From a virus (lineage: Duplodnaviria; Caudoviricetes), in IMG/VR virus record IMGVR_UViG_3300025012_000029, positions 128,001 through 192,000 of that record: DNA of 64,000 nucleotides; one strand, given 5' to 3'. Numbering within the stretch: position 1 is the stretch's first letter; the number at the start of each line of letters is the position of its first letter. Shown here one piece after another: positions 3,529-61,788 of this stretch. Position numbers and translations under genes: made by a program. The notes beneath the pieces were generated by a model. The model saw nothing but the letters and a program-made list of their open reading frames with translations, searched no databases and was not told the DNA's origin.

Positions 3529-3839
3529 TATCTAGCCTTCTTTTTAGCTTCTCTAATTGGATTATTCAATGCTTCAAATATTTTATCTCTATCGTTATCT
3601 GATAAATCAAGTTCTTCACCGCCCGTCTTCTTAATTAAGCTTGTTAATTTAACTAATTGTTCATTAGATCTTTGAAGAGTTTCAACATATTTGGCCAAAG
3701 TAAATCCAACTTCTTTATGTCTGTCACCATTATTTGCTATATAAGCAATCAAATCATTTAAAAGTTCGCTTGTTTTTTCCCTATCTTTGCGGATATTATC
3801 TATAGACTCATCCATTAAAGTATCAAAATCTTTTCTCAT
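3528..3839 (-). CDS. Hypothetical helical protein
   Basis: 103 aa ORF, translationally coupled. Confidence 0.7.
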   Translation of the reverse strand: MRKDFDTLMDESIDNIRKDREKTSELLNDLIAYIANNGDRHKEVGFTLAKYVETLQRSNEQLVKLTSLIKKTGGEELDLSDNDRDKIFEALNNPIREAKKKAR

Positions 3840-27158: not shown

Positions 27159-28829
27159 TTATTCAACACTGTCAAAGTATTCTTTAAAGGTATTATAATT
27201 TGACTCTCCTATAACATCTTTAAATTCATGGAAAACATCACGTTCTTCGCGCCTTCGACGAAGCATTTTGTCTGGATCGGAACTTGTGCTTAATCCGTCT
27301 GGATTATAATAATAAAGTCCCAATATTTTATTAACCTTCTTAAAAAGAGAACCAGCTCTAACAGCTCGCAACCATAACTCCCAATCTCCAGCGTGTTTGA
27401 GTTTTTCATCCCATAGTCCCGCTTTATCGTGAATAGATTTACGATATAGAGGTAGGGGTCCGGGAAGACATTTGATCATATTTTCTCTGGAAAAATCCAT
27501 TCGAGAGTGTTCATACAATCTTCCTTTTGAAGAATTTTGTTCAACTGTTTCATTAGGTTTTGTCGTTTGAAGACAATCCCCATATACCAAATCGATTTCT
27601 GGATTCAACATTAAGTGTTTTGCTAGTGTTTCTAAATGATCGTTCGCCATCCTATCATCAGCCAACACACATGCTATAAATTCCCCGGACGCAAGTTTCG
27701 TTGCTTCATTAAATGCTTCCATTGGAGTTATTTGGGTGTTTTTTCTAATATATTTAATATTGTCTGTATGCACTTGTATATATTTCGAAATTATTGAGAC
27801 TTCATCATCTGGAGAATTGGCATCGATAATGATTAATTCAGAATCGTCTGATATTGTTTGTGCTACAAACGAATCCATAAAACCTTTAATATGTTCCTTT
27901 GCTTTATAGATTGTCGTAATAACTGAAACTTTGGGAAGTTTTACTGAATTAAATTTTTCCACTTCTTTATCTTTGATTACTTTCTCAAACAAATCAATTG
28001 TTTTTTCTTTTCTTCCGGCAATATATTCTAATAACTCTTCGCCCTTTAATTTGAAAAAATCTTCTGATGCGCATCCTAAAGCTTTGTTTGTTATTAATTT
28101 ACAACCTAGAATTCTAGCTTCAATCGCGACCCTACAAAATGTTTCAATCCATGTAGGAAAAAACACCAACGTTTCTGTTTTGGCAAGTTCATCAAAAAAT
28201 CTATCTTGATCACAAAATGGAATTAATTCATAATTTATTTTATTCTTTTTACAATATTGTATTGCTTCGGGCATGCCTTTATTTTTATTATTGGATTGGA
28301 TAATACCAACTTTTCTATTCTTCTTTTTTCCAATATTGTTGCGAAGGACTTCAACTGCTTCATCAGACCATATATTACATCCAATATTGACAATATTTTT
28401 GAGAAGAAGATTTTTCTCCATTATTTCAGCATGCATCTTGCTTTGACAAAAAACTGCTTTCGCTGATTTAAAAAATTGTTTATTCTGTATTTGATCTTCA
28501 GGAACAACAAGATTTGGAAATAATGCTGGGTTATTTGATTTGAATGCCTTCCAATCATTTTCAACTATCAAATAATTTATTTTTTCATTAATCAGTGTTT
28601 GTTTACTATCTTCTGGTAATAGCATAAAATTTGATATTATCCAAAAACAATCTTTATTGTCTTTTAGCAAGTTAGAAGTACATTCAACACTTTTAAGTTT
28701 TTCTAATTCGAATCCACGTTTCTGCAGAGACTTTATTTGTTCTTCTGCGCACAACTCGGCACCGCCACAGATTTCATTAGCAAAATAGTCAGCAACATAA
28801 ACAACTTTTTTAGTATTAATCATACGCAA
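27159..28829 (-). CDS. Two-domain glycosyltransferase (GT-B-like + GT2)
   Basis: ETFCRVAIEA (GT4 E-x7-E type); C-terminal VSVITTIY, IDANS, LADD, GDWELWLR. Confidence 0.85.
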   Translation of the reverse strand: MRMINTKKVVYVADYFANEICGGAELCAEEQIKSLQKRGFELEKLKSVECTSNLLKDNKDCFWIISNFMLLPEDSKQTLINEKINYLIVENDWKAFKSNNPALFPNLVVPEDQIQNKQFFKSAKAVFCQSKMHAEIMEKNLLLKNIVNIGCNIWSDEAVEVLRNNIGKKKNRKVGIIQSNNKNKGMPEAIQYCKKNKINYELIPFCDQDRFFDELAKTETLVFFPTWIETFCRVAIEARILGCKLITNKALGCASEDFFKLKGEELLEYIAGRKEKTIDLFEKVIKDKEVEKFNSVKLPKVSVITTIYKAKEHIKGFMDSFVAQTISDDSELIIIDANSPDDEVSIISKYIQVHTDNIKYIRKNTQITPMEAFNEATKLASGEFIACVLADDRMANDHLETLAKHLMLNPEIDLVYGDCLQTTKPNETVEQNSSKGRLYEHSRMDFSRENMIKCLPGPLPLYRKSIHDKAGLWDEKLKHAGDWELWLRAVRAGSLFKKVNKILGLYYYNPDGLSTSSDPDKMLRRRREERDVFHEFKDVIGESNYNTFKEYFDSVE

Positions 28830-31326
28830 TAACTTCTTTCAATAAGGGATTAACTTCTTTTTCTTCTTTCAGAAAATCCGCAATATCTACAATTGGATAA
28901 TATTCATCTACACAATCGGCGAAATGTGTCAACATCTTATCGGAATCAAATTTGTCTAACACATATTCTTGAAGTTTGTTTGCTCGCGATTTACAAGAAC
29001 CATAATTTTTGTAAACTTCCCTCATTTGTTGTTTAGCATCAATTTCTCTAGGAAAGCACCATTGTGCATCAGGAATAATTATTCCATCCCAAACTGCTTC
29101 TGGTTGAACATTTTTAATATCGTACGCTACGTTAGAAATCATACATGTATTTTTGATTTTATTCTTTTTCTTATCTTTTATTGGCATATAAATAAAATCA
29201 TTTTGTCCACTCCATGCGGGGGCAACTATCGGCAATCCATTATATGCTGATTCAAACATTGGAAGACAGTTGTGCACCATAAAATTTTCAGTACAATAAG
29301 TTTCGTCTTCTTCAACAGAAAGGTTGAATACTTTACCAGCGTGCTGAAATTTAGTAATATTTTTTATTCTCAGCAAAAAACAATCTTCTTTTTCTTTAGT
29401 TCTTCCAGATTGTTTTTCATTAAACGAATCTGCCAACTGCAGTGTGTCGTATATTACAGTATTAGAAGTATGTTTATTTAACATGGTTACAAATTTATTA
29501 ATACTTTCTTTTTTTCCAATAACTAACGAATGAATTTCACTCTTGTAATTCCATTTTTCTTTAATAATTCCTTCTCGGGTGCACATTTTATAGGAACATA
29601 ATATTCCTTGTTCTAATAATAATATTCTAATTTGTCTCAATAATGTTTTATTGACAAGTTGTACCTCTATAGATGGATTCTTGTAATTTTTAGTATTAAT
29701 ATATCCATCTCCTTCAAATAAAGCAGTAATCATTCCCTCTTTAAATTCATTAGGAAACGAGAAAACGCAATCACTAATAACTTTATTTTTTGATTTATTT
29801 CCCAATAAAGATTTGAAAAATAAAGCCACAATTTTATTGTGAAATACAATAACAGAACATTTTTTATTTTTTCTTTTTTCTATCCTAAAATGTTCTATCC
29901 CGAATATATCTTTCATGCAATTGATAATTTCTTTTCCAAAAGAATCAATTTCTTTATCATGAAGAGAAAAAGCAATAATTCTATCATCAGATACACATCC
30001 TTCGGCTAAAAACCATCCACACAATCTACCAAATTTTTTATCAATATTGATATTATTTTTTATTTTTAGGCCAAGTTTATTTGAATGCATATAAAAAATA
30101 TCTTCATCGTTTAGTACTAAATTTTTTTCATTTTTTACGTGTTCAAATATATCAATATTGTTAATGATATTTTCTTTTTTTGACATTTTTGGCAAAACCA
30201 AATAGTCATTTTGTTTTAATTCATCGCTTCTTTTCCACAAGAATTCTTTATTTTTATTATCATAAATGTAAACATTGTGATTCGGCGTTAAAACAATTGG
30301 TTCCATAGGTACTGCACAATATGGAACAATTTTAATCATCTCGCCAGAATATTCACGAGACATAGGAGTTATAACTTTTCGATATCGATTTCTATGAGTC
30401 AATACTAAATCTCCAGATTTAATATCGATCAATTTCTTAAGTCCTTTGTCTGTAATAATTGGAGTATAGTCCAATCCGCAGAAACCTTCTCCGTGCGTTA
30501 AACTAATGAAAGCTTTAATTTTTGGATGTCTATAAAGAAAAGTCATTTCTTCCTCTCTTAAATCTCCATGTAAAAGATGTATAGCACATTTTCGTTCTTT
30601 TCCATTAAATTGAGATAAAACATCATTAACTCTATTTTGAGTCATTTCTCTATCCATTAATGATTGATTAACGGAATTGACTTTCAATATTAATCCAACT
30701 TCTTTATTCATAAACTCTTCAACGAACCATTTAATTGTATTTTCAACATTCTTTCGTGGTCCCCATTGAGCTACAGTTAGAAAATTAAAATCATACTTAA
30801 AATCAACATTAATTGGTTTTGGTTCTACAATTCTAACCGGATAAGGAACAACTTCCATTGGCATCTCAAGTTTGGCAACAAATTGTCTTCCTGTAACATT
30901 ATCTGTCGCTGGAAACTGCGCATTGGTAAAACCAAATTTAGAATGATTAGATGTTAATAGAATTTTGTTTACATTGAAACATCCCTGAAACCATTGAGGT
31001 GAAATTTTAGTTGTTTCAATTCCAGCAGTATATCCAATATTAATTGGAGCCATTTTTTTCCACTCATTTGGGATACAAACTTGTAATGATATATCAAACT
31101 GTCCACCTTGTTGTTGATAAACAAGAGTTTTTTGAAGAATTTGATCAATCCAGCGGCGCTCTTCTGTATCTTCCCATGTCCAACTTGTTCTACCCCAAGG
31201 GGTATTAATGAGATATATGTCAAATCGTTCTGGAAACTTTCGAAGAGCGGAAAGAGCAAAACGACTCTGAACACCATAACCGCTTTGGCTCAAAAAAGGT
31301 CCCCTCATTATGATTTTTTTAGTCAT
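28816..31326 (-). CDS. GT4-like glycosyltransferase containing an intein
   Basis: SGYG, QWGPRKN; the motif EGF|CLPMFES is restored after intein removal. Confidence 0.9.
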   Translation of the reverse strand: MTKKIIMRGPFLSQSGYGVQSRFALSALRKFPERFDIYLINTPWGRTSWTWEDTEERRWIDQILQKTLVYQQQGGQFDISLQVCIPNEWKKMAPINIGYTAGIETTKISPQWFQGCFNVNKILLTSNHSKFGFTNAQFPATDNVTGRQFVAKLEMPMEVVPYPVRIVEPKPINVDFKYDFNFLTVAQWGPRKNVENTIKWFVEEFMNKEVGLILKVNSVNQSLMDREMTQNRVNDVLSQFNGKERKCAIHLLHGDLREEEMTFLYRHPKIKAFISLTHGEGFCGLDYTPIITDKGLKKLIDIKSGDLVLTHRNRYRKVITPMSREYSGEMIKIVPYCAVPMEPIVLTPNHNVYIYDNKNKEFLWKRSDELKQNDYLVLPKMSKKENIINNIDIFEHVKNEKNLVLNDEDIFYMHSNKLGLKIKNNINIDKKFGRLCGWFLAEGCVSDDRIIAFSLHDKEIDSFGKEIINCMKDIFGIEHFRIEKRKNKKCSVIVFHNKIVALFFKSLLGNKSKNKVISDCVFSFPNEFKEGMITALFEGDGYINTKNYKNPSIEVQLVNKTLLRQIRILLLEQGILCSYKMCTREGIIKEKWNYKSEIHSLVIGKKESINKFVTMLNKHTSNTVIYDTLQLADSFNEKQSGRTKEKEDCFLLRIKNITKFQHAGKVFNLSVEEDETYCTENFMVHNCLPMFESAYNGLPIVAPAWSGQNDFIYMPIKDKKKNKIKNTCMISNVAYDIKNVQPEAVWDGIIIPDAQWCFPREIDAKQQMREVYKNYGSCKSRANKLQEYVLDKFDSDKMLTHFADCVDEYYPIVDIADFLKEEKEVNPLLKEVIAYD
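29269..30480 (-). mobile_element. Class-1 intein (404 aa) with LAGLIDADG endonuclease
   Basis: Cys1 (CGLDYTPIIT), block B TPNH, FLAEG and LFEGDG motifs, ends VHN followed by +1 Cys. Confidence 0.92.
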
Positions 31327-31674: not shown

Positions 31675-33259
31675 TTATAAAGTTCTCAATTCCCACGCTC
31701 TGTAACATTTTCTATTTTCCCAACTACCATGCTTTTCGTGAACATGAGTTAAAACTTCATCCCAACGCTTGTTGAATGATTCAAAATTATAATTTTTGAT
31801 AACATGTTCTCTTCCCTTTTTACCCATCAATATGCGTTCTTCTTTTGTCATATTATAAAACATAACCATTGCCTTGAGAAAATCCGGTTTTGAAATTCTG
31901 TCCTCAAAAATATATGGCACTGTTTGTGATCCAATTACAACGCTTGACGCCGGAATTATTCCAATTCCATGTTCACATATTTTTATTTTATCAGATATCT
32001 CATTATTTCTTTTTTCGACAAATTCACAAGACATTTGAATATTTGTCATATCCATTACTTGTTCTTGTAAACCACCTGTCATACTGACTATAATTGGAGT
32101 TTCACAAGCAAGGCTTTCAAAAACAGAAAGTCCAAAACCCTCTGCATCCGAAATTGATAGAGTAGCATCCGCCATATTATAAATTCCTGCCATATTTTCT
32201 GATGTTAATTTATCTTTAGATATAAAAACACTTTGCTCTTTATCTAAACCAAGTTCTTTAATTATGGCATATAAATCTTGTCCATTTTCATCTTTTGGCT
32301 CAGTGTGCATAAGCAGCATTGCTTTATCGTGCCCTATAATGTCTAAAAATTCTTTAAACCACCAAATAAGAGTTCCACTTTGCTTTCTTCTAGCATTTCT
32401 GCTATTCCAGAAAAACAACATTTTATCTGTAGCATTGGGAAAATTCTCTCTTCTTAAAGAAATGATTTTGTCATCTGGTAATTTAGTAAAAACGGATGTA
32501 TTCACAGAATGCGGAAAATATGTTTCTTCTACGTTTGGAGAAACAGTCTTTACAATGTCTGATGTAAGTTTTGAAATGGTAGCAATGAAATCTGTTGAAT
32601 CATATAATACTTTATTGAAGCTTGGATATGGGTAATTATCCCAAACGTGGTAATAAACCATCGGTACCAAGGAACGTATTTCGTGTTCAATTTCCCAAAG
32701 CCAAATATAGAATCTTGGATCGGTCATAAACCAAAGAATATCAGGTCTATGATTTCTAACGACTGAACGAACAATTTCTTGATTGGCATACCCATCAACT
32801 GGATAAATGATCCAATCATCTCCAAATTCATGGAATTTAACAATGCGTCGATCACTGTGAACTAATGCGCCACCTAAAGTAATAATCTGATATTTTCCTG
32901 TTTTAAGGAGTGCTTCACACATGTATTTAGTTTGCGATCCAACCCCAGACGGGCTTACGATTATTGGACTATATCACCATGTTACAAAAACATGTCGGGC
33001 GCTGTCGGATCATTACCATGTTGCTATAGCAATTTAGGCTAACCGTAGTCTCTGAACCTTCTCCACCGTTTCCAGACAGGAGCTTGGCTGCTGATTGTTC
33101 AATTACATTATTTTTTTTCTTTCGCGCATGTCGTTTCCAACTACGCTGTAGAACAATGTTTTTAAGAATTTTCCAGCAATTCACCCGATTTTACATCCGC
33201 TAAACCTTGTCAGTCGACGGATGATCGGAAATTGTTAGTATTTTAATCTTTTTTGTCAC
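31675..33259 (-). CDS. GT4 glycosyltransferase, spliced (exon 1 33217-33259, exon 2 31675-32957; 441 aa)
   Basis: Joined exons read MTKKIKILTISDHP-L-SPSGVGSQTKY...; RNARRK and EGFGLSVFES GT4 motifs; GTG start. Confidence 0.88.
32958..33216 (-). ncRNA. Group I intron (259 nt, ORF-less, IA-like)
   Basis: P AAUUGCUGGAAA, Q AAUCAGCAG, R UCAGAGACUA, S GAUAUAGUCC; P1 CAUCCGU/GCGGAUG with U-G at the splice site; P10 UAAGCC/GGUUUA; P3 CGGGUG/CGCCCG; terminal G. Confidence 0.92.
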
Positions 33260-34115
33260 TTATTTCTTTCCTTAACCTTTCTAAAACTAATTTTTTATTT
33301 TCGTTAAAATCTTTTTCCCAAATAATATAAACTTTATATCCTAATCCTTTTAAAAAGTTTAACCTTTTTTCATCCTTTTCCCATATTTCATTGGCATACA
33401 TGTTCTTTTTTTTGTTGAAATATTTTTTATCATAATCTCTAGGGTCGCAGTGCCAATAACCACCGTTAAATTCAACAATTATAGAATGCTTTTTGCTAAA
33501 AACGTCAGCATAAAATCCAGAAATGTATTGTTCAGCTTTAAACCCAAATTCTTTAAGTTCTTTTTGTAAAAAATCTAAGATTTCTTTGTTTGGCTTACTC
33601 TGAGCATGACGCTTAGAAAGTTCATAAGCGTTATTAACGCCATGATTTTTTTGTAAAGTATTTTTTTGTTTCAACTTTTGTTCATTTGTAAGTTTTTTAC
33701 CAAACATTGGATTATTTTCACCAAAAAATAAATTAGACATATATTTTTGATGACAAATTTTATTACCACACAACTTCTTGTTTTCTACTTCAGAAGGTTT
33801 TGCGTAAAATGGTTTATCACATATAATACAATTTTTGTATATTCCTTTTTTATCATTAGCTCGATAACGCCATTTATTATACGCACCATTTTCTATGTAA
33901 AATTTCGAAGCGCAACTGTTGCTACAAAATCCACCACCCTTCCTATACCTTATAACCTCTTTTTGACATTCTTTACAATTAAAAATTGATAAATGTTGTA
34001 ATCGATTTTTTTTAGTTCTGTCGTTATTGTGTCTCACGCGACATTCTTTTGAACATGTTTTGGACGCCCACGTTCCTTCAAACTCATTCTCACATATAAT
34101 GCACTTCCTCAACAT
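33243..34115 (-). CDS. Free-standing putative homing endonuclease (Zn fingers + NUMOD3-like + Vsr/DUF559-like nuclease)
   Basis: Multiple CxxC; GENNPMFGKK; C-terminal FYADV..IVEFNGGYWH..D..R...L..LGYKV..IWE. Confidence 0.75.
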   Translation of the reverse strand: MLRKCIICENEFEGTWASKTCSKECRVRHNNDRTKKNRLQHLSIFNCKECQKEVIRYRKGGGFCSNSCASKFYIENGAYNKWRYRANDKKGIYKNCIICDKPFYAKPSEVENKKLCGNKICHQKYMSNLFFGENNPMFGKKLTNEQKLKQKNTLQKNHGVNNAYELSKRHAQSKPNKEILDFLQKELKEFGFKAEQYISGFYADVFSKKHSIIVEFNGGYWHCDPRDYDKKYFNKKKNMYANEIWEKDEKRLNFLKGLGYKVYIIWEKDFNENKKLVLERLRKEISDKKD

Positions 34116-34139
34116 AGCCTAAACTTTATTTTTTATTCT

Positions 34140-34931
34140 TCACGGACAGAATTCTGTTTTTAAAAACGGACAATATTTACATGATAATCTATTCTTTGGA
34201 AACTTTTCATTGTCAACATTGTATACCATGGTATTTAAAAGTTTAAGAGCATTGTCTATTTTTTTCTTTCCTATTTTTGTCTCGAATATTTCAATATTAT
34301 CTTTCTTGGCAGTGCGTTTAATTAATCCAAAATGAGTTTTGATTTTATTTAATTCTATGTCTTCTTGCTGAGAAAGAAAATGTTTATAATATGTAAGCTG
34401 ATATGTTGTCATCTTGTCATTTCTTTTTTTAGCATCCCAACCCCAGCTTGTTGTTTTCCAGTCTAGTATATGAATTGTATCATCTGATGGTGTATGAATA
34501 ACAACATCTAAAATACCTTTGAATTCAAAATTCTTTTTCATATAACTTATAATTGGTTCTATTATTTTACTTTCTGTAGAAATAATCACAAAACCAGGAA
34601 ACTGTTTATGAAGTTCCTCAATTGACTTTTTGCAAAGGGATGGTCCAACTTCCATCATTTCCTTAGCTAATTTTTTGAGACTTTTATCAGAGAAAATATT
34701 TTGTTTAATATTTCCAGAAAGTTCTTTAAGAGATCTCTTAAAGTTTGTTTTAAACACATTTTCTATATCTGAGATATTATCTACAAGAATTGATTGGTTA
34801 GTGGCATGAACGGCATTGCCAAAAGCTGTATGTATGCTGCCTTTATCATGAGGAATTTTATCTATATATTTTAGCTTAAAATAAAAAGGACATTTTGACC
34901 AATCAGATAAAGAAGAATAAGAAATATACAT
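34140..34931 (-). CDS. Cas4-like/RecB-family PD-(D/E)XK exonuclease
   Basis: N-terminal CP; GILD, LDWKT, QLTYY; C-terminal CKYC..C. Confidence 0.85.
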   Translation of the reverse strand: MYISYSSLSDWSKCPFYFKLKYIDKIPHDKGSIHTAFGNAVHATNQSILVDNISDIENVFKTNFKRSLKELSGNIKQNIFSDKSLKKLAKEMMEVGPSLCKKSIEELHKQFPGFVIISTESKIIEPIISYMKKNFEFKGILDVVIHTPSDDTIHILDWKTTSWGWDAKKRNDKMTTYQLTYYKHFLSQQEDIELNKIKTHFGLIKRTAKKDNIEIFETKIGKKKIDNALKLLNTMVYNVDNEKFPKNRLSCKYCPFLKTEFCP

Positions 34932-53311: not shown

Positions 53312-53385
53312 TGTTTCGGGGTGGATTCGAACCACCATCGCCCACGCCTTCAACGTGGCGCTCTACCAATTGGAGCTACCGAAAC
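53312..53385 (-). tRNA. tRNA-Phe(GAA)
   Basis: Cloverleaf; CCACG-TTGAAGG-CGTGG. Confidence 0.92.
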
Positions 53386-53465
53386 AAAAAGCCCCATTAC
53401 AAGGCTTATGTTACGACATAAATGTCTTATTTATTTAAGAATTTTCTAATTGTTAGGTTTCGAAA

Positions 53466-53699
53466 TTAGAAACTAGCGTCGTAGGTTTGCTCTGTCGAGA
53501 CAGAACCATCAGCATTGCGCACGCGAAGTGTGGTATTGATACCAAAGTCAGAAGCAGCAAGACGAGCTCGCCTTCGCCCCTCTTGTTCCGCTTCACGCCG
53601 GGTCTCCGTTCGCTTAACGCAAGTACCCTTTCCAGTGACTACCTTCCAGCCACCAATATTTCTATCCGAGCGAACTTCATATAGCCTATGATTTTTCAT
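53466..53699 (-). CDS. DUF2188-like small protein
   Basis: GGWKV...T..EA...R..A...LRVRNADG pattern. Confidence 0.6.
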   Translation of the reverse strand: MKNHRLYEVRSDRNIGGWKVVTGKGTCVKRTETRREAEQEGRRRARLAASDFGINTTLRVRNADGSVSTEQTYDASF

Positions 53700-53801
53700 T
53701 ATTAATTATTACCTCTTTGTTTTTAAATCTCAATATTTCATTGAGTATCTTTACTTTACAGCATTTTGTTTGCTGTGTCAATAGGAAAATTTCTTTTCCT
53801 A

Positions 53802-53874
53802 CGTCTCTGGCAGGGTTCGAACCTGCTACCTCATTTTTAGGGGAAATGCGTTCTTCCTTATGAACTACAGAGAC
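53802..53874 (-). tRNA. tRNA-Arg(CCT)
   Basis: CATTT-CCCCTAA-AAATG (C33). Confidence 0.85.
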
Positions 53875-53892
53875 ATTTAGCATAAAATCTCA

Positions 53893-53963
53893 AGCCTATA
53901 TAGGGAATTAAACCCTAGTTTCAACTTTACCAAAGTTGTGTATTATCACTATACTATACAGGC
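53893..53963 (-). tRNA. tRNA-Thr(GGT)
   Basis: CAACT-TTGGTAA-AGTTG. Confidence 0.85.
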
Positions 53964-54611
53964 AAAATACTTGTCAAACACTTTTTCAAATAATTTCATT
54001 GTTTCTTTTAATTCATTTTTGTGATCTTTGAGATAATCTTTTAACCCAGAATTCAGTCCAGTGCTTAAATAAGCATGTATTTCGTCATCCAAAACACTTT
54101 CATCATACATATTGTCATAAAGAAATTTTCTTATCGCTTTGTTTAATTCTTTAGGAATTGATTTGAGAAGTGTTTTCATTTCTTCTTTATATTCTGGTAT
54201 CATATTCCAAAAAGCATGTGATAATTCATGCTTATAAGTGCTTTCATCGCCTTTTTTGATTCCTATTAAATAAAATTCTTTTCCATATCTTTTTCTCATT
54301 GTATTGAATAATTTTTTCATGAAAAGATCATATTTGTTAATATCTGGAATTCCTTTTTTAAAAACATCATGAATTACACATCCAGAAATATTAAATCCGC
54401 CCCAGTCGTTAGGATATGTAAAACAACCTCTACCAAATGATTTAGAATACCATTCCATATAATCTATAAGAGAAAAAACATTATTTCTGAAAGATGGATT
54501 AGGTGATTCATAATATTCTTGAAATCTCAAGAAGTGCATTGCTAGATCATATTCGCTATCAAACGATAAAACAAATATTTTTGGATACACTTCATTGAAT
54601 TCAAATTTCAT
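53949..54611 (-). CDS. Hypothetical protein with HExxH motif
   Basis: KHELSHAFW; 220 aa. Confidence 0.65.
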   Translation of the reverse strand: MKFEFNEVYPKIFVLSFDSEYDLAMHFLRFQEYYESPNPSFRNNVFSLIDYMEWYSKSFGRGCFTYPNDWGGFNISGCVIHDVFKKGIPDINKYDLFMKKLFNTMRKRYGKEFYLIGIKKGDESTYKHELSHAFWNMIPEYKEEMKTLLKSIPKELNKAIRKFLYDNMYDESVLDDEIHAYLSTGLNSGLKDYLKDHKNELKETMKLFEKVFDKYFACIV

Positions 54612-54612
54612 T

Positions 54613-54684
54613 TGCTGACAAGAAGATTCGCACTTCTACCTATTACTTACGGGGCAATAATACTTCTAATTATACTATGTCAGC
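54613..54684 (-). tRNA. tRNA-Thr(CGT)
   Basis: ATTGC-CCCGTAA-GTAAT; T loop TGCGAAT. Confidence 0.75.
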
Positions 54685-54688
54685 TCTA

Positions 54689-55063
54689 TTAGAAAAGTAA
54701 ACGAACATTATGATGTCTATCAGAAATCTTAGATAATTCTTTCTTTATCACTTCTTCCCATATGTTGAATTTGTTTGCCAATCCAGAACCTAATTGGGAA
54801 ATTAGCCAAAGCGTATTAGGTGATTTCCTTATTTCAAATTCAAGTTTAGATAATTCTTTTTCAAATACTTTTCTGTATTCTTCTGGTTTATAAAAACTAT
54901 CATCGTTGTTATTTGGATATTTCTTTGTGATAAATCCATATGTATTTGGTTCACTTCGAAACATCGCTGCGCCAGCAAAACCTTTTCTTAACCGATTGTC
55001 TCCATATACAAAAATTGTATTAGGGTTTTTTCGAAGGTATTCTTTTGTTATTAACATAACCAC
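54689..55063 (-). CDS. Hypothetical phage protein (A1S_2505-like/macro-like fold suspected)
   Basis: IFVYGDN..G.AGAA and LGSGLA motifs. Confidence 0.55.
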   Translation of the reverse strand: MVMLITKEYLRKNPNTIFVYGDNRLRKGFAGAAMFRSEPNTYGFITKKYPNNNDDSFYKPEEYRKVFEKELSKLEFEIRKSPNTLWLISQLGSGLANKFNIWEEVIKKELSKISDRHHNVRLLF

Positions 55064-55069
55064 TCTCCA

Positions 55070-55145
55070 TGAACACGAAAGGATTCGAACCTTTGCTGTC
55101 CGACTGATTTCTCTCCCGGATGCCGTCCCGCTTGGCTACGTGTCC
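55070..55145 (-). ncRNA. tRNA-like RNA with 12-nt anticodon loop
   Basis: Normal acceptor, D and T arms; TCCGG-GAGAGAAATCAG-TCGGA has no readable anticodon. Confidence 0.6.
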
Positions 55146-55155
55146 AATATTTAAA

Positions 55156-55746
55156 TCAGGTCCATAAATATTTTCTTAATTTTATGAGCTTATCAAGATT
55201 ATCGTCATCTTTTCTCTCAAACTCTTCTTTCTTTTTAGAAAATTCTTCCCATTTGGGATTTTCGAAAAAATGAGAAGTATCCCATATTCTACATCCTGGA
55301 TGTTCTGGAGATTCTTTGAATTTTATCGATAAATCCATGCCATCACAAATATGATGTATTTCATCATACTCTTTTTCTCTGTCTTCTTTCCACCAATGAT
55401 AAAGTTTAAATATTTCCTCATAAACTCTAGTTGCTTCCTCATTGTGTTTCTTTTTATTTTCTGTTGAGTGTTCTTCTTCGCTTAATTCATCAAAACAACC
55501 AATTTGGCGCTTAAGCATACCTAAACCATCTTCTTTTTCAACAAATTCTACAAGACAATTAAAACAAGCATGGAACATTCTCCAATCTTGATCCATCCAT
55601 CCATATCGATATTCTTTGGTTCGAAGGTCTAACATATGATATCGGTTGATGGTGTGACATCTAATCCAATACCAAATATCATGAAAGGGACGCTTAATAT
55701 CCCTTAATGCGTCTAATACAGCATGCTTGATTTTTTGTTTAACCAT
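55156..55746 (-). CDS. Hypothetical protein
   Basis: Start MVKQK with GGAG SD; the longer ORF overlaps tRNA-Val. Confidence 0.7.
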   Translation of the reverse strand: MVKQKIKHAVLDALRDIKRPFHDIWYWIRCHTINRYHMLDLRTKEYRYGWMDQDWRMFHACFNCLVEFVEKEDGLGMLKRQIGCFDELSEEEHSTENKKKHNEEATRVYEEIFKLYHWWKEDREKEYDEIHHICDGMDLSIKFKESPEHPGCRIWDTSHFFENPKWEEFSKKKEEFERKDDDNLDKLIKLRKYLWT

Positions 55747-55793
55747 TAAATTTCTCCATTTTATTATCGTTATTATATTTTCCTCATAAATTA

Positions 55794-55864
55794 TACTGGG
55801 TAGGGGATTTGCACTCCTGCGAAAGGTATGTAACACCTTCATGCTACTTTTACATCAACCCAGT
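55794..55864 (-). tRNA. tRNA-Val(TAC)
   Basis: AAGGT-GTTACAT-ACCTT; T loop TGCAAAT. Confidence 0.75.
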
Positions 55865-56100
55865 CTATTTTTCTTTTTGTTTCTTCCAGAAAATGTGATT
55901 GTTTGACTATGACAATTAGGACACAACAATCGTAGATTTTCCAATCTATTGTCTGTTCGTATTCCATTTGTGTGGTCTAATTGTAAAGTAATTGATTTTC
56001 CATTCCACATCGGTTCCATTTTACATATGTTAACATTTTTCTTCTAAAATATTTTCATCTAATAATCGTTTTCTCAGATTTGTTGACCAAATATACTCAC
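55855..56100 (-). pseudogene. Frameshifted HNH endonuclease between tRNA genes
   Basis: EEKC then +1 shift to NICKMEPMWNGKSITLQLDHTNG..DNRLENLRLLCPNCHSQT; start boundary approximate. Confidence 0.75.
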
Positions 56101-56113
56101 TATAATTGTGGTG

Positions 56114-56184
56114 TTGCCCCACTAAGATTCGAACTTAGAACAAAAATTTCAGAGACTTTTATTTTGCCATTAAACTATGGGGCA
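56114..56184 (-). tRNA. tRNA-Gln(CTG)
   Basis: AAAGT-CTCTGAA-ATTTT; U1-A72. Confidence 0.9.
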
Positions 56185-56185
56185 G

Positions 56186-56274
56186 CGGAGTGTAGAAGAA
56201 TCGAACTTCTGTGAGCTTATGATCTCAACCTCTGCTTTCGAAACAGGTGCTTTTCCAAACTCAGCCAACACTCC
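56186..56274 (-). tRNA. tRNA-Ser(CGA)
   Basis: Loop TTCGAAA, long variable arm, G73. Confidence 0.85.
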
Positions 56275-56477
56275 TAATCAATAACGTTATGTTTATATTT
56301 TTTAAGTTCTTTTCTAATAATTTCTTTTAGAACTGGTGTTGGTTCAGATTTTCCTTCTCGCCATCTTTTAATTGATGGACGTGAACAATCGAACATCTCT
56401 GAGACATCCTCATCGTAAACTTCACATTCTTTCATTAGTAATGTTATTTCTTCAGCCCAAGATATTTCTTTGTTCAT
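56274..56477 (-). CDS. Small HTH (Cro/XRE-like) protein
   Basis: VSEMFDCSRPSIKRWREGKSEP; start MNKEIS. Confidence 0.7.
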   Translation of the reverse strand: MNKEISWAEEITLLMKECEVYDEDVSEMFDCSRPSIKRWREGKSEPTPVLKEIIRKELKKYKHNVID

Positions 56478-56478
56478 A

Positions 56479-56566
56479 CGGAAGATAGAGGATTCGAACC
56501 CCTGCACGACTGATTACGTGACACCAGTTTTCAAGACTGGAACCTTTCCAACTCGGTCAATCTTCC
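56479..56566 (-). tRNA. tRNA-Ser(TGA)
   Basis: CCAGT-CTTGAAA-ACTGG, long variable arm. Confidence 0.92.
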
Positions 56567-56832
56567 ACAGCATTAACACTATACTCTTCGGACTTTTTTA
56601 ATATCAGCCTAAACCGATCATGATCTTCTAACCTTAGCATAAACGAATCAAAATGTCCATATTTACATTTGTATCCAAAAACATATTTTAAAGCAATCCA
56701 AATTCTTTTATACCAACTATTCCATTGATTCAAAAATACAGAAGCGTAGATATATCCATCTTCATCATCAATGTTAAATTTCAATGTATGTTCATCTGAA
56801 TAACATTGGCATTCAAAATGTTCTGTATCCAT
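56557..56832 (-). CDS. Hypothetical protein
   Basis: 91 aa, GGAG SD. Confidence 0.65.
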   Translation of the reverse strand: MDTEHFECQCYSDEHTLKFNIDDEDGYIYASVFLNQWNSWYKRIWIALKYVFGYKCKYGHFDSFMLRLEDHDRFRLILKKSEEYSVNAVED

Positions 56833-56854
56833 TATATCTCCAATCTAATTAATA

Positions 56855-57091
56855 TTATTTTCTTACCAAAAGAAGCATTGTCGTGGAACCAATTATGAAC
56901 CCAAAAGCAGAAAAAAAAGTAAGACGAAGCCTTTCCATAAAGTCTTTTGTATCGATAAACCACATATACAAAATCATATTAACGAAAGGGAGAATGAAAC
57001 CAGTGATCGCTTGAGTTATAATCCATCCATGAGCGACAGAATAAGAATATAAAGAGATCCAAAAATCTGCGATCGCGCTTAATATCGTCAC
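56855..57091 (-). CDS. Hypothetical membrane protein
   Basis: Two hydrophobic segments. Confidence 0.55.
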   Translation of the reverse strand: MTILSAIADFWISLYSYSVAHGWIITQAITGFILPFVNMILYMWFIDTKDFMERLRLTFFSAFGFIIGSTTMLLLVRK

Positions 57092-57178
57092 AAACAGGTA
57101 ACGTGTAACGTCTGAATGGGTTCTCCCATATTTTGTTTAATAGATTTTTCTCCACCAGGGTCATCCATAAATTATGTT

Positions 57179-57397
57179 TTAATCCTCAACAACTTTAGCA
57201 TATACAAAAATTAATTGATATATGTTTCCTAATCTAAATAGCTTAATATCAATATAGTTGCTGACACAAACATTATTCTCCTCCAGAAATTTAGAGAATT
57301 CATATTCAATTGTTCCTATAGTTGAAGCAAGTAATATTTTCGTTCTTAACACTCTTGCTTTTAGCTCAATATTATCGAAAACGGAGCAAGAGTTCAT
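57179..57397 (-). CDS. Hypothetical protein
   Basis: 72 aa coupled ORF. Confidence 0.55.
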   Translation of the reverse strand: MNSCSVFDNIELKARVLRTKILLASTIGTIEYEFSKFLEENNVCVSNYIDIKLFRLGNIYQLIFVYAKVVED

Positions 57398-57657
57398 TGT
57401 TCTTTGAACTCCACAATAGAAAGGAAATGTTTAATTGTTTTTTCAACAAACTCTTTACCCATACATTCTGTATCGCAGATTATTTTACTTCCTTTTTTAT
57501 AGAAAGCAATTTGTCCAAAACCAAGATGTTCAACACCCCAATTAAGAATAAATCCGCCATCATTTCCAGTGTGTTTATCCCACACTTCCAGTTCAACATA
57601 TTTGAATTGTGGATTCTTTTTAGCTTCAGCAATTTCTTCTTTTGTTCCAAAAACCAT
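57394..57657 (-). CDS. Hypothetical protein
   Basis: 87 aa coupled ORF. Confidence 0.6.
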   Translation of the reverse strand: MVFGTKEEIAEAKKNPQFKYVELEVWDKHTGNDGGFILNWGVEHLGFGQIAFYKKGSKIICDTECMGKEFVEKTIKHFLSIVEFKEQ

Positions 57658-57918
57658 TTACTTCCTCATATCTTTCTCTTCAACATCTTCCCAATAATGT
57701 TTACCATCTTTATCCATCGACCAAACATCCATCGTTTCTTCTTCATTAAAAAAGACTACGTTTTCTGAATCTACAGCTCCTTGTTCAATTTTTCGAACAA
57801 TTTCTCTTTCAAGAGAACGATACATCTTATGAAATAATTTTTTATCTTTTTTTTCAGATGCGTGACAAAGAGATCCAACGTTTCCGAATATTTTTGTTTT
57901 ACGGATTGATCTGCTCAT
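57658..57918 (-). CDS. Hypothetical protein
   Basis: 86 aa (MSRS.RKT...WSMDKDGK). Confidence 0.65.
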   Translation of the reverse strand: MSRSIRKTKIFGNVGSLCHASEKKDKKLFHKMYRSLEREIVRKIEQGAVDSENVVFFNEEETMDVWSMDKDGKHYWEDVEEKDMRK

Positions 57919-57948
57919 AAAGTAATTATGTTCCCATTGACAGTAACA

Positions 57949-58092
57949 TTAAGAAAACTGTTTAATGAATTTAATTTTAAGTTTTCTAATTAAATCTTTG
58001 AGTTTCTTATTTTCTTTGTCAAGTTTACGCTTGTCAAGTTGTAACTTGATAACTTCATTTTTAAGACGCTGTATTTCTATTCTATAATCCAT
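57949..58092 (-). CDS. Small coiled-coil protein
   Basis: Start MDYRIE just 3' of tRNA-Ala. Confidence 0.4.
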   Translation of the reverse strand: MDYRIEIQRLKNEVIKLQLDKRKLDKENKKLKDLIRKLKIKFIKQFS

Positions 58093-58100
58093 ATATTGAT

Positions 58101-58174
58101 TGGAATGTATCGGAATCGAACCGATTCTTAAAGAATGCAAATCTTTCGTGCAAACCCATTAACACTTACACCCC
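58101..58174 (-). tRNA. tRNA-Ala(TGC)
   Basis: AAAGA-TTTGCAT-TCTTT; G3-U70. Confidence 0.9.
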
Positions 58175-58392
58175 AATATGATCGATTTTCGTTCAGTCAA
58201 TCCATCTCTCAACTTGTAATCGCGCGTAGATAGTTTATTATCATTTGGAAGTCATAGTTTCCTCGTTCCATTTGTAAACAACATTGTATCATTGTATTAC
58301 ACACAAATCAATCATCGCACGCACGCGAACATTTGCTAAGAAGGTTTTTTATGATAGCTCACGCCGCACTATCACCCTCTCGTTACGTGATC

Positions 58393-58935
58393 TTAATCGG
58401 ATAATTCTCCATGCCAATATAAGCATGTTGCCATATAGTCTCTCCATGAATCTGGAGCACCTTTATTCCAAAATATAGTTTGGAAGATGTTCTTTGGTTT
58501 ACTTGGAATAGATAACAAAGTCATTCCAGATTTATGAAGAGGTTTATCTTGTTTTCGTCTATTACAATCTACACAACAAACGACAACATTTTTCCATTCC
58601 GTTATCCCACCTAATGCCCTTGGAACAATGTGATCTAGTGTAAACTCTTCTGTCGTACAATGAGTTCCACAATATTGGCATTTTCCTTTATCTCTTGCAT
58701 AAACATTATCTCTTGAGAATTTTACTCTTCTCACTTTTTTGAAAACGTTTTTGACAAATCTGATAATGGAAGGAACTTTGAATGCTTGATGAGCTGAGCG
58801 AACCCATAAGTCAGCATATTCTTCTACAATTTCAACCTTATCCATCATATAAAGACAAAAAGCACGTTGCCAGCTAATAATTCCTAGTGGTTGATATGAA
58901 GTATCGAGCACTAGCGTTTTTGCGTTCACATCCAT
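58393..58935 (-). CDS. HNH endonuclease (McrA-like)
   Basis: CQYCG..TLDHIVPR..GG..W.NVV.CC..CN..K; start MDVNAK after AAGGA. Confidence 0.9.
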   Translation of the reverse strand: MDVNAKTLVLDTSYQPLGIISWQRAFCLYMMDKVEIVEEYADLWVRSAHQAFKVPSIIRFVKNVFKKVRRVKFSRDNVYARDKGKCQYCGTHCTTEEFTLDHIVPRALGGITEWKNVVVCCVDCNRRKQDKPLHKSGMTLLSIPSKPKNIFQTIFWNKGAPDSWRDYMATCLYWHGELSD

Positions 58936-58954
58936 AATTCTTTTCCTTTTTAAG

Positions 58955-59032
58955 TGGAGCGCAGGGGAGTCGAACCCCTTTCCGAAAAACTCCATTTGTT
59001 GGATTATCTTTCGTCGAAACCATTAGCGCCCC
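58955..59032 (-). ncRNA. tmRNA tRNA-like domain without mRNA-like domain (78 nt)
   Basis: 5' GGGGCGCTAATGGTTTCGAC, G3-U70, no D stem, short capped P2, T arm AGGGG-TTCGACT-CCCCT, A73. Confidence 0.75.
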
Positions 59033-59040
59033 ATATTTTT

Positions 59041-59069
59041 ACTATAAATAACTATTCATCATTTGTCAA
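59041..59069 (-). promoter_or_regulatory. Sigma70-type promoter for the tmRNA-like RNA/HNH
   Basis: TTGACA-17 nt-TATAGT. Confidence 0.8.
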
Positions 59070-59104
59070 ATAGATTTGACATTCGCAATTATGAATGATA
59101 AGAA

Positions 59105-59422
59105 TTAATCATGATTTTTAAGCATTCTATCAACTTCTTCCTTATCTCTTGTTTGATAAAAGATTAATCTTATTCTTTCTAAAATCTTTTTTCTATTCTT
59201 GAGTCTTGTTTTTGCTGGGAATGTTGACGTTAAAATTCCAAACAACGCATGATGCGAGGTTATTTTCTCAACATCTATCAACTCAAGAATTTTATCAATG
59301 ATATCAAACCTATTCCTGTTCATTAAATTATGCATCATATCAAACATATAATCTAATTGTAAATCATCTGATAAATTTGTATTTTCAATTATATTTCTTG
59401 CGATCAATTCAGAATTATTCAT
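59105..59422 (-). CDS. Hypothetical protein
   Basis: 105 aa. Confidence 0.6.
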   Translation of the reverse strand: MNNSELIARNIIENTNLSDDLQLDYMFDMMHNLMNRNRFDIIDKILELIDVEKITSHHALFGILTSTFPAKTRLKNRKKILERIRLIFYQTRDKEEVDRMLKNHD

Positions 59423-59440
59423 ATTTATTCACACATTAAG

Positions 59441-59514
59441 AGGATAGGGAGGGACTTGCGCCCACTAAAATTCGTTTTGCAGACGAATGCCTCGACTACT
59501 TCAGCTTCCTATCC
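59441..59514 (-). tRNA. tRNA-Cys(GCA)
   Basis: TTCGT-CTGCAAA-ACGAA; U73. Confidence 0.85.
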
Positions 59515-59519
59515 ACAAA

Positions 59520-59729
59520 TCATTTAATTGCTTTCTTTTCACATAAAGATAACATCACTAACGCAATTATGTGCTTTGCCTCAGATAAACATTCGTCAGC
59601 GGGTACATTGGAAGACAAAATGAATTGTTTTGTAAGATAACAATTTACCTTCTTTTCTAATTCATTATCTCCGTCCATTTGTTCCCAAGTTACTTTACCT
59701 TTAACAACTCTACTTATTTCTTTTTTCAT
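59520..59729 (-). CDS. Hypothetical protein
   Basis: 69 aa. Confidence 0.5.
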   Translation of the reverse strand: MKKEISRVVKGKVTWEQMDGDNELEKKVNCYLTKQFILSSNVPADECLSEAKHIIALVMLSLCEKKAIK

Positions 59730-59732
59730 AAC

Positions 59733-59809
59733 ATTGTGGTGACGAGTCGAACGCCTTGAAATAACTTTTGGAGGGTTACCCGAATCCGATTCGGTTTAAT
59801 CTACCACAA
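59733..59809 (-). tRNA. Atypical tRNA-Trp(CCA)-like
   Basis: Acceptor TTGTGGT/ACCACAA, loop CTCCAAA, T loop TTCGACT; D region replaced by palindrome CCGAATCGGATTCGG. Confidence 0.45.
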
Positions 59810-59836
59810 TATAATTTAGATGAATTCATCTAAAAG

Positions 59837-59910
59837 CACCCCTAGGAGGATTTAAACCCACCAACTCAAAGTTCGTAGCTTTGTGTGATATTCAGTTTCA
59901 CTATAGGGGT
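59837..59910 (-). tRNA. tRNA-Arg(ACG)
   Basis: CAAAG-CTACGAA-CTTTG. Confidence 0.88.
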
Positions 59911-59915
59911 ATAAT

Positions 59916-60088
59916 TCTAATAGAGCAGATTTCCACTGCGTTGAGGATAGGCGTGATATGAGTAACGCCTCGTTTTACATCTTGTCCGCCAGCTTACCAT
60001 ACCCATCTGGCTGGTCTTGTCCGCACCGTATCACTACACCGAACAAGTTCTCCTTCAACTGATTACCTCCTAAGGAGGTTCTATTAGA
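59916..60088 (-). ncRNA. Unassigned structured RNA (173 nt)
   Basis: 9-bp closing stem TCTAATAGA/TCTATTAGA and several internal stems; GC-rich relative to surroundings. Confidence 0.6.
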
Positions 60089-60160
60089 TGCGAATACCAA
60101 GAATCGAACTTGGAAAAAAAGTTTATCAGACTTTTATGATAACCATTTCATCATATTCGC
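60089..60160 (-). tRNA. tRNA-Ile(GAT)
   Basis: AAAGT-CTGATAA-ACTTT. Confidence 0.9.
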
Positions 60161-60323
60161 CCATTGGGGAGTCAGGGATTCGAACCCCGCTACCGCAAAC
60201 CAGTATCGCTATTTGTTAACGCGGACTTGTTTTACAGACAAGTGCGATTAACTCACCGTTTAGTATACATTCCACTTCGGTATACTAGCGAACTGAACTT
60301 CTTGTCAATCCTCTCTACAATGG
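60161..60323 (-). ncRNA. Expanded tRNA-Tyr(GTA)-like RNA (163 nt)
   Basis: CTTGT-CTGTAAA-ACAAG and CGGGG-TTCGAAT-CCCTG intact; D arm and variable arm greatly enlarged. Confidence 0.65.
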
Positions 60324-60345
60324 AGGGACGCACAGATAAAGTGGA

Positions 60346-60416
60346 TCGCGATTACCAGAATCGAACTGGTAAATTAATTTTATGAGAATTATGTGATTCC
60401 ATTTCACCAAATCGCG
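60346..60416 (-). tRNA. tRNA-CAT (Met or Ile2)
   Basis: TAATT-CTCATAA-AATTA; C1-G72 paired. Confidence 0.85.
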
Positions 60417-60677
60417 TTATTTTCTCTTTTTTCTCATTTCTATTTCATGAAGTTCAATTGAAATATCTATACATTTTTTCTCAATTACTTCATATTCTAC
60501 AATCTCACAATCCTTGTATACAAGTGGATTTCCACTTTTGACAATAAAAACAAGATGTAATTTCAATTGTCCCTCTCCGTTCCATGTCTTTCCTTTTTCA
60601 GAAAATCTTGGCTTACTTCCGCCTTTCGAAAATAAACCTTCTTGATTTCTTATTTTATAGATCATATTAATTATCAA
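60417..60677 (-). CDS. Hypothetical protein
   Basis: 86 aa (YKIRNQEGLFSKGG..P..GK.W). Confidence 0.65.
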   Translation of the reverse strand: MIINMIYKIRNQEGLFSKGGSKPRFSEKGKTWNGEGQLKLHLVFIVKSGNPLVYKDCEIVEYEVIEKKCIDISIELHEIEMRKKRK

Positions 60678-60685
60678 AGATAAAT

Positions 60686-60758
60686 TGCGGGTACAAGAGT
60701 CGAACTTGTTATCTCGAAGGTTATGAGCCTTGAATGATTATCCGTTTCACCCACCCGC
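60686..60758 (-). tRNA. tRNA-CAT (Met or Ile2)
   Basis: AAGG-CTCATAA-CCTT. Confidence 0.85.
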
Positions 60759-61051
60759 TATATATTGTTGTTTTTTCTTCTTTTCTGTTCGTCATACATT
60801 TCTATCCACTCAAATAAAGGAATGAAAACTTCTGTATGTTTATTATCATCCCACATAATCCAACCCTGAAGTTCTTTAACCAATTCATTAATTCTAAATC
60901 TTTCTCGACCAGTCAGATCTGATAAATGTTCAGAGCCGTTAATATCTTCCCAAACTCTATATTCGATATATCCACACCATCCAGCGCAAGTTTCACGTTC
61001 TGAGAACTGCGAGATTATATTTTTGAGTTCATTAAAAGCTTCTTTATTCAT
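60758..61051 (-). CDS. Hypothetical protein
   Basis: Start MNKEAF; the longer ORF overlaps tRNA-Leu. Confidence 0.6.
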   Translation of the reverse strand: MNKEAFNELKNIISQFSERETCAGWCGYIEYRVWEDINGSEHLSDLTGRERFRINELVKELQGWIMWDDNKHTEVFIPLFEWIEMYDEQKRRKNNNI

Positions 61052-61064
61052 AATAATATTACCA

Positions 61065-61138
61065 TGCTCACAGAGAGATTCGAACTCCCAACGCACACGG
61101 TCTAAACGTGTTGACTCTACCAATTGGTCTATGTGAGC
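61065..61138 (-). tRNA. tRNA-Leu(TAG), short variable loop
   Basis: ACACG-TTTAGAC-CGTGT; 5-nt variable loop. Confidence 0.85.
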
Positions 61139-61374
61139 TTTTTTTTCATTCTTTCTCTAACTTCTTCATGTGTATAATACCACTTCATTTTACAACAAGC
61201 AAGTCCCAAAGTAATGTGACAGCAAGTTCTGAAATCTAAAAGATCATCGCTTTTTCTAGCATAAAGACTATTCAAGAAATAAAATTTAATCGCTTCATAA
61301 GGAACGAGAAAATAATATCTTCTTCTCCATAGTTTAACATACCAAGAACAATATTGGAATCGTTTTTCTTCCAT
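61129..61374 (-). CDS. Hypothetical protein
   Basis: 81 aa. Confidence 0.55.
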   Translation of the reverse strand: MEEKRFQYCSWYVKLWRRRYYFLVPYEAIKFYFLNSLYARKSDDLLDFRTCCHITLGLACCKMKWYYTHEEVRERMKKKLT

Positions 61375-61385
61375 AAATTAATTAG

Positions 61386-61458: not shown

Positions 61459-61463
61459 AAAAG

Positions 61464-61723: not shown

Positions 61724-61788
61724 ATTTTATTTAACTTACAATTCTATATTACCAGTTATTATTGATTCTGTCAATAAGTAATTTTTAA

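Follow-up and report, generated by a model that had tools for sequence, protein, structure and literature searches.

A group I intron without P9 in a phage glycosyltransferase gene: a probable naturally minimal intron and its sister introns

The window analysed here is a stretch of 64,000 nucleotides (nt) from an uncultured virus of the Caudoviricetes (positions 128,001 to 192,000 of the record IMGVR_UViG_3300025012_000029). On its minus strand, a GT4-type glycosyltransferase (GT) gene of a marine phage is interrupted after codon 14 by a 259-nt intron that stops 8 nt past the 3' strand of the helix P7 (P7'). This element is probably a naturally minimal phage IA2-like group I intron, which has lost P9, lacks P2 and still works. 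The reading is supported by a core backed by covariation (P1, P3-P8, the P3/P7 pseudoknot, a P5abc-like extension and a P7.1/P7.2 insertion). A sequence-only reading of the same DNA had offered three outcomes for the loss of P9: a naturally minimal ribozyme, one in need of a helper, or a crippled intron that silences the GT. The first fits best, given eight GT-site introns with unstructured tails, compensatory changes in the cores and intact GT frames under selection; the other two fare less well and are weighed below. On balance we also lean, with less assurance, towards a wider proposal, in which a clade of phage introns would work in vivo without P9, P9.0 and the L9-P5 clamp, relying on the terminal G and P10 alone to find the 3' splice site, with P9 dispensable and lost at least three times (in the window intron, in the L256-L270 subgroup of sister introns and in an intron of a capsid gene).

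The interrupted gene is laid out as follows:

31675..32957, minus strand: GT exon 2, with 427 codons up to the stop; UAAGCC, the 6 nt at its start, is the P10 strand.
32958..33216, minus strand: group I intron of 259 nt, without an open reading frame (ORF), without P2 (J1/3 is UAAAA) and without P9.
32958..32965, minus strand: unstructured 3' tail AAUAAUC (32965..32959) and the terminal G (omega-G, 32958); no P9 and no P9.0.
33217..33259, minus strand: GT exon 1, with a GTG start, MTKKIKILTISDHP and the first base of a Leu codon, located by a motif search guided by intron-less homologues.

The listed GT ORF (Pfam Glycos_transf_1) begins at an internal Met at 32922, and its frame is open upstream to 32973. 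This upstream portion encodes SPSGVGSQTKY, which resembles the glycine-rich loop of GT-B enzymes minus the first beta-strand. The search of viral contigs with the exon 2 protein gave 502 related stretches, of which the best 80 (54-59% identity) were taken and the N-termini read at 47 loci. All of these are uninterrupted and read M-x-KKIKILTISDHP-L-SPSGVGTQTKY. In a six-frame motif search of the window, VTKKIKILTISDHP occurs once only, at 33259..33218. The GTG of this exon 1 is preceded by an AAGGA Shine-Dalgarno-like motif 9 nt upstream, and the exon overlaps the final codons of an upstream ORF of 290 amino acids. Joining U33217 to U32957 gives a UUA Leu codon and the sequence SDHP-L-SPSGVG, with the same spacing as in the 47 intron-less homologues. 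Since U33217/U32957 is the single junction that satisfies the U-before rule, the G-before rule and the one-residue spacing, the intron extends from 33216 to 32958 and comprises 259 nt without an ORF. The spacing in the homologues, the 5' splice site's U.G pair, the P10 formed with exon 2 and the covariation of P10 in the sister introns are the grounds on which G32958 is the true last intron base. The sequence-only reading had held that the splice site and the frame were kept, and this stands: the junction matches the intron-less homologues and P10 covaries with exon 2.

Two other gene structures were considered. An exon 1 starting at the GTG at 34143 (MKNKK), which would make the neighbouring endonuclease ORF intronic, was ruled out by the homologue N-termini and the motif search, and these place the exon at 33259..33217. 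The second was a 3' splice site after GGAUCG (32935), with a hairpin of the exon serving as P9. The sequence-only reading had also raised a downstream 3' splice site; it was not upheld, because the conserved SPSGVG motif would be lost.

The minus strand from 32972 to 32958 reads A-UAGUCC-AAUAAUC-G and continues into UAAGCCCGUCUGGGG. As had been claimed, only AAUAAUC lies between P7' (UAGUCC) and the terminal G. The placement of P7' is backed by covariation in two alignments, one of 20 introns of the wider family (A1) and one of the GT-site sister introns, with 74% mean identity (A2). Folding of the 7-nt tail returned no structure (0.0 kcal/mol), and neither P9 nor P9.0 can form in it, which bears out the claim that P9 is wholly absent. 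The absence of P9 in the window intron is real and is atypical of the wider family. In the minimum free energy (MFE) fold, CGAU of exon 1 (33227-33224) can pair with AUCG of the tail (32961-32958, including the terminal G), stacked on P1. This pairing is probably due to chance, since it has no counterpart in the capsid-gene intron described below.

The remaining parts of the intron are, from 5' to 3':

33194..33206, minus strand: internal guide sequence GGUUUA-GCGGAUG, comprising the P10 strand (33206..33201) and the P1 3' strand (33200..33194).
33183..33188, minus strand: P3 5' strand UCGGGU, pairing with GCCCGA (33000..32995) and crossing P7 to form the pseudoknot; 93% paired in A1, with 5/6 pairs compensatory.
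33088..33179, minus strand: P4 and the P5-P5a-P5b extension, P4 being 33179..33173 with 33094..33088; a GAAA-capped hairpin and an A-rich stretch, drawn from the MFE fold and covariation.
33057..33087, minus strand: P6/P6a, the inner stem GAAA-capped; 100% paired, with compensatory changes.
33046..33052, minus strand: P7 5' strand G-A(bulge)-GACUA, which contains the G-C pair of the guanosine-binding site; invariant columns.
33006..33045, minus strand: P7.1/P7.2-type insertion between P7 and P3', with an outer CGG/CCG and an inner UUGC-UAUA-GCAA, then the conserved GUAAUGA.
32978..32994, minus strand: P8 hairpin CAUGU-UUUUGUA-ACAUG; 5/5 pairs compensatory in A1.
32966..32977, minus strand: J8/7 GUGAUA and P7' UAGUCC (32971..32966); the block GAUAUAGUC is invariant in A1 and A2.

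The wider family was gathered by pattern scans on the P7/P7' and P3'/P8 blocks, from which only distant relatives came out. When the helices drawn from the window intron (P3, P4, P6, P6a, P7, P8) are laid on A1, 96.5% of the cells are paired and 20 of the 30 pairs show compensatory changes; slid controls reach 25-46%. The full drawn structure behaves similarly in A2 (89.6% paired, 34/73 pairs compensatory, slid controls 30-40%), and the P7.1/P7.2-type insertion also shows compensatory changes there. The MFE fold yields P1, P3, P4, P5, P5a, P5b, P6a and P8. The last 7 nt of exon 1, CAUCCGU (33223..33217), are the 5' strand of P1, which forms 7 base pairs (bp; CAUCCGU/GCGGAUG) with U33217.G at the splice site and, in 13 sister introns, stays invariant with 100% pairing. 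Immediately 5' of the P1 strand of the guide sequence lies the P10 strand, which forms 6 bp with exon 2 (GGUUUA/UAAGCC). Four of these six pairs are compensatory in A2, and P10 covaries with exon 2 as a whole, being GGUUUA/UAAGCC in one sister group and GCUCA/UGAGC in the other. P7' UAGUCC pairs with G165/G167-A171 of the R element (GAGACUA, 33052..33046), and the P7 closing pair changes from G-C to A-U in DW2 and L259. Intron positions 20-171, the P3-P7 half, show BLAST similarity to group I introns of Staphylococcus, Serratia, Bacillus, Listeria, Vibrio and Pseudomonas phages. Of 52 columns conserved in the family, the window intron deviates from the consensus in 3 (family range 0-6). Judged by these comparisons, the core is intact and the element is a group I intron of the phage IA2-like family. 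Its assignment to group I would hold despite the missing P9, a lost peripheral element, because all the features of the catalytic core are present.

When the frame of exon 1 is read onward, it meets a UAG (33203-33201, minus strand) within the guide sequence (GGUUUAGCGG), 7 codons into the intron. A ribosome at this codon would stall on the P1/P10 strands, and a coupling between translation and splicing is possible.

Sister introns were sought with the guide sequence and the P3/P4 pattern. A further 12 distinct introns were found at the identical site (SDHP/L-S-x-SGVG) in GT genes of other uncultured phages, within L256-L270, and the homologous introns whose search had been proposed thus include forms with a full, a shrunken or an absent P9. 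Their tails, counted from P7' to the terminal G inclusive, are:

L270: 7 nt, no fold.
Window intron: 8 nt, no fold.
L263: 9 nt, no fold.
L260: 13 nt, no fold.
L268: 14 nt, no fold.
L258: 15 nt, no fold.
L261: 16 nt, no fold.
L256: 21 nt, no fold.
L257, L265 and L266: 24 nt, a hairpin of 7 bp as folded, with a 3-nt non-GNRA loop, -4 to -5 kcal/mol.
L259: 29 nt, a canonical P9 of 7 bp with GAAA, -10.5 kcal/mol.
L269: 32 nt, a weak 9-bp hairpin, non-GNRA.

Unstructured tails of 7-21 nt thus occur in eight GT-site introns, the window intron included. The sisters are 66-79% identical to it, the nearest being L257, L265, L266 and L269 (78-79%). In a maximum-likelihood tree of the intron cores, the window intron groups (90/90) with the P9-bearing L257 type and L259, and the remaining seven P9-less introns form the other group. 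The most parsimonious account would have two P9 losses at the GT site; a single loss is found in 43% of the bootstrap trees.

Across the wider family, P9 is a hairpin of 5-9 bp that starts 2-5 nt past P7' and is almost always capped by a GNRA loop. Of 51 distinct members, 46 pass a strict test for it, 44 of them with a GNRA-type loop, and inspection by eye adds three more (L089, L139 and L145, with a longer loop or a mismatch), giving 49/51. The only two members without P9 are the window intron and an intron of a cyanophage capsid gene. A scan based on P5b gave a heterogeneous set with other 3' domains and unreliable automatic P7'/P9 calls, and it was not used. The capsid-gene intron is 197 nt long, ends in the tail AAAUU and G, and lies in the major capsid gene of T7-like cyanophages (four contigs, L105, L109, L113 and L138); its junction is proven by the intron-less P-SSP7 gp10. 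It is smaller than the Azoarcus intron, which has 205 nt and is commonly quoted as the smallest. A second intron in this capsid gene, a paralogue 87% identical to the first, retains P9 (CCAUAUU-GAAA-GAUAUGG) and a P5 resembling the 11-nt receptor. Because this close paralogue retains P9, the loss in the capsid gene is independent of that in the window intron.

In the uncultured T7-like cyanophage L105, the P9-less intron occupies 3022-3218 and the paralogue 3603-3827, the first having neither P9 nor the receptor-like P5. Phage tRNA or tRNA-like genes also seem to be interrupted by related introns of this family (L129:1830-2095, minus strand; L146; L147). Sequence resembling tRNA lies to either side of the intron in L146 and L147 (E. 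coli virus TH47 and Klebsiella phage phiKp_21) and 3' of it in L129.

The partner that L9 would contact was also compared. In the members with a GNRA L9 that were inspected (DW2, Vibrio 1.232.O, L127 and L259), the P5 internal loop is UUAGAG/AUU. The window intron has the altered form UUAAAA/AAUU, and in the remaining P9-less sisters the loop is gone. This comparison by eye gives a weak hint that loop and receptor were lost together.

Behind the P9-less introns, GT exon 2 is open for 400-427 codons wherever the contig reaches; full-length frames of 400-406 codons are present in L256, L258, L260, L263 and L268, and the frames of L261 and L270 leave their contigs still open. Between carriers, the GT shows a pN of 0.20-0.26 and a pS of 0.87-0.92, the latter saturated. 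These values show purifying selection on the carriers' GT genes, whose age far exceeds that of the introns. As the introns are 66-79% identical and the synonymous sites of the GT are saturated, the introns seem to have spread horizontally, and recently, among diverged old GT alleles. The P9-less introns probably work, because their GT frames are unbroken as far as the contigs reach, purifying selection acts on these frames and the capsid relative sits in an essential gene; these patterns strongly suggest that they are functional.

A neighbouring gene bears on how the introns move:

33243..34115, minus strand: free-standing homing-endonuclease gene of 290 amino acids, with Zn-finger-like repeats, NUMOD3 and a DUF559/Vsr-like nuclease (ORF list, Pfam).

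This gene lies outside the intron; its stop codon falls within GT exon 1 and it ends 27 nt from the insertion site. A broad search of viral contigs with the endonuclease protein returned no related loci. On the other hand, local tblastn at the sister loci found homologues directly upstream of the intron in nine of them (L257, L259, L260, L263-L266, L268 and L269). Only a short remnant of the gene is left in L261 and L270, and it is missing altogether from L256 and L267, in which a PD-(D/E)XK gene abuts the GT. Because P9-less introns persist with the gene decayed or gone, the endonuclease would not be required as a maturase. The pattern suggests that the intron and the upstream endonuclease gene behave as a mobile collaborative-homing unit in a cycle of gain and decay.

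Other elements were noted in the window. The next downstream GT (28816-31326, minus strand) carries an intein with a LAGLIDADG domain (Pfam Intein_splicing, LAGLIDADG_3, Hint_2), and two adjacent GT genes therefore each hold a different selfish element. Further along (53312-63491, minus strand) there are 23 tRNA genes and an 81-nt partial match to the tmRNA model (58952-59032), consistent with a large (201 kb) phage genome.

Splicing of the window intron could proceed as follows. In the first step, an exogenous G would attack after U33217 in the U.G pair of P1, as is standard. Subsequently, the terminal G32958 would swing on the flexible 7-nt linker into the G-binding pair G167-C250 of P7. The linker should be long enough, because this pair is one base pair from the point where the tail leaves P7. 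The 3' splice site would then be chosen by the terminal G and the 6-bp P10 alone, with no role for P9.0 and no L9-P5 clamp, and the P5abc-like extension may offset the loss of the clamp. P10 comprises 6 bp in the window intron, 5 bp in the other P9-less forms and about 3 bp in the P9-bearing capsid paralogue. A statement in PMC11417360, citing Michel et al. 1989, holds that P9.0 or P10 can be removed singly, not both together.

Some results weigh against a working, naturally minimal intron. Rfam, including RF00028, gave no group I match over 32000..34500, either at the gathering cut-offs or at E <= 10; the Rfam group I model RF00028 is insensitive to phage IA introns. As the window intron has no relative closer than 79%, its own loss of P9 is undatable. 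Finally, the GT may be dispensable to the phage, and an unspliced gene could persist for a while.

Among the alternatives, a minimal intron that is not self-sufficient holds up best, and it is possible though unlikely. Its folding or the choice of its 3' splice site would need an RNA chaperone, the translating ribosome or a protein of the phage or the host. P9-deleted ribozymes generally need more Mg2+ or stabilising factors, as known from work on Tetrahymena, td and CYT-18, which counts in favour of such a helper. The UAG in the guide sequence would also bring ribosomes very near P1/P10, and accessory factors have been proposed for one P9-less intron (PMC3873408). However, no candidate helper is linked to the introns, the adjacent endonuclease gene being absent or decayed beside some P9-less sisters, and the P5abc-like extension together with a strong P10 could be enough.

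For the manner of the loss, the sequence-only reading had proposed a microhomology deletion between two GUAAG copies, which would have removed the 3' half of P9 and left UAAUC as its old 5' half and GUAA as its old loop. C-GUAA-G does resemble a closed GNRA loop, and the P9 of the S-PM2 psbA intron, following UAGUCC-AAU, is capped by GUAA. This origin is nonetheless improbable. No second GUAAG copy is apparent, and the nearest sisters already have the G/UAAG junction with a P9 upstream whose loops are of the UAU type, not GUAA; the UAAG letters of the exon are set by the Leu-Ser codons and P10, and no such pattern appears in the other P9-less tails. When aligned to the nearest sisters, the window tail AAUAAUCG corresponds instead to their J7/9 'AA' and final UAAUG with one extra C, the hairpin between them being gone, and its AUCG falls on their AAUG/GAUG just before the terminal G. 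A small P9 hairpin was likely deleted cleanly from an ancestor resembling the L257-type sisters.

It is quite improbable that the loss of P9 abolished splicing and silenced the GT, leaving a young pseudogene. The GT may be accessory and is followed by a second GT, with its intein, and P9 is regarded as essential (PMC3873408). However, in this AT-rich genome both exons are intact, exon 1 with 14 consensus-matching codons and exon 2 with 427 codons, and the conserved core columns show no excess change. Seven other P9-less sisters lie in GT frames that are intact where the contig reaches and are under purifying selection, and one P9-less relative lies in an essential capsid gene. An artefact, either a real 3' splice site further downstream, where a small hairpin (AGCCC-GUCUG-GGGUU) can be drawn in exon 2, or a collapsed assembly of a longer P9-bearing allele, is highly improbable, as the downstream sequence encodes, in frame, the SPSGVG that the homologues read also have, only 32958 suits P10 and the terminal G, the same short-tail design recurs in independent contigs and a repeat of 5 nt could not make an assembly collapse.

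Natural introns whose main difference is a full, a degenerate or an absent P9, and that reside in intact genes, provide a system for studying how the terminal G docks and how the 3' splice site is found without P9.0. To our knowledge, P9 and the contact of its L9 tetraloop are shown in every textbook group I structure, and one organelle paper calls P9 essential (PMC3873408). The main value lies in the GT-site series, which, if the clade reading is true, would be a natural deletion series running from a canonical P9 through a weak hairpin to linkers of 21 down to 7 nt. It may also help in designing smaller ribozymes for splicing or circularisation. In genome annotation, Rfam misses introns of this kind, and the genes that they interrupt are split unnoticed; gene calling would begin the present GT 17 residues after its true start and leave out its first beta-strand.

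The closest laboratory counterparts are engineered 3'-truncated sunY cores and miniribozymes (Xu & Shub 1989; Doudna & Szostak 1989; Michel et al. 1990, Genes Dev 4:777, which PMC11417360 lists), of which a core cut shortly past P7' is reportedly still catalytic; P9.0 and P10 are also said to be partly redundant there in the choice of the 3' splice site. These cores are laboratory deletions studied in vitro, often at high Mg2+, whereas here the truncation is natural, recurrent and kept in genes under selection. In the literature library searched for natural group I introns without P9, only one organellar case was found and no phage case. This is the mitochondrial Pa.rnl.1 intron of Prasinoderma coloniale, likewise described as without P9; its authors call it 'very unusual' and suspect a missing third piece or accessory factors (PMC3873408). 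Unlike the window intron, it is organellar, trans-spliced and of group IB, and has no series of relatives. The Azoarcus pre-tRNA-Ile intron (PMC13168695) shares the comparable small size and compact group I fold. It differs in belonging to IC3, in keeping P2, P9, P9.0 and tetraloop contacts including that of L9, and in lacking P7.1/P7.2 and a P5abc-like extension.

The phage IA2 introns (T4 td/nrdB/sunY, Twort orf142, SPO1 pol and the IStron; PMC4227781) have, like the window intron, P7.1/P7.2 between P7 and P3', and the blocks AAUUGCUGG ... AAUCAGCAG ... GUUCAGAGACUA ... GAUAUAGUC are common to both. They carry an extended domain 9 (P9.0, P9, P9.1, P9.2) and usually P2, whereas the window intron has neither. 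Of the same RNA family is the psbA intron of S-PM2 with its endonuclease F-CphI (PMC3984707; PMC6083498), which shares the P3/P4 block, the R and S elements and a P7.1-type insertion. It is also small (212 nt), without an ORF, from a marine phage and next to a free-standing homing-endonuclease gene, an arrangement described as collaborative homing (review PMC3984707; F-CphI PMC6083498). On the other hand, the S-PM2 intron keeps a 6-bp P9 capped by GUAA and some 20 more 3' bases. The S-PM2 endonuclease is Endo VII-like and encoded downstream, whereas that of the window is DUF559/Vsr-like with NUMOD3 and is encoded upstream, overlapping exon 1; the host gene is psbA in the former and a glycosyltransferase in the latter.

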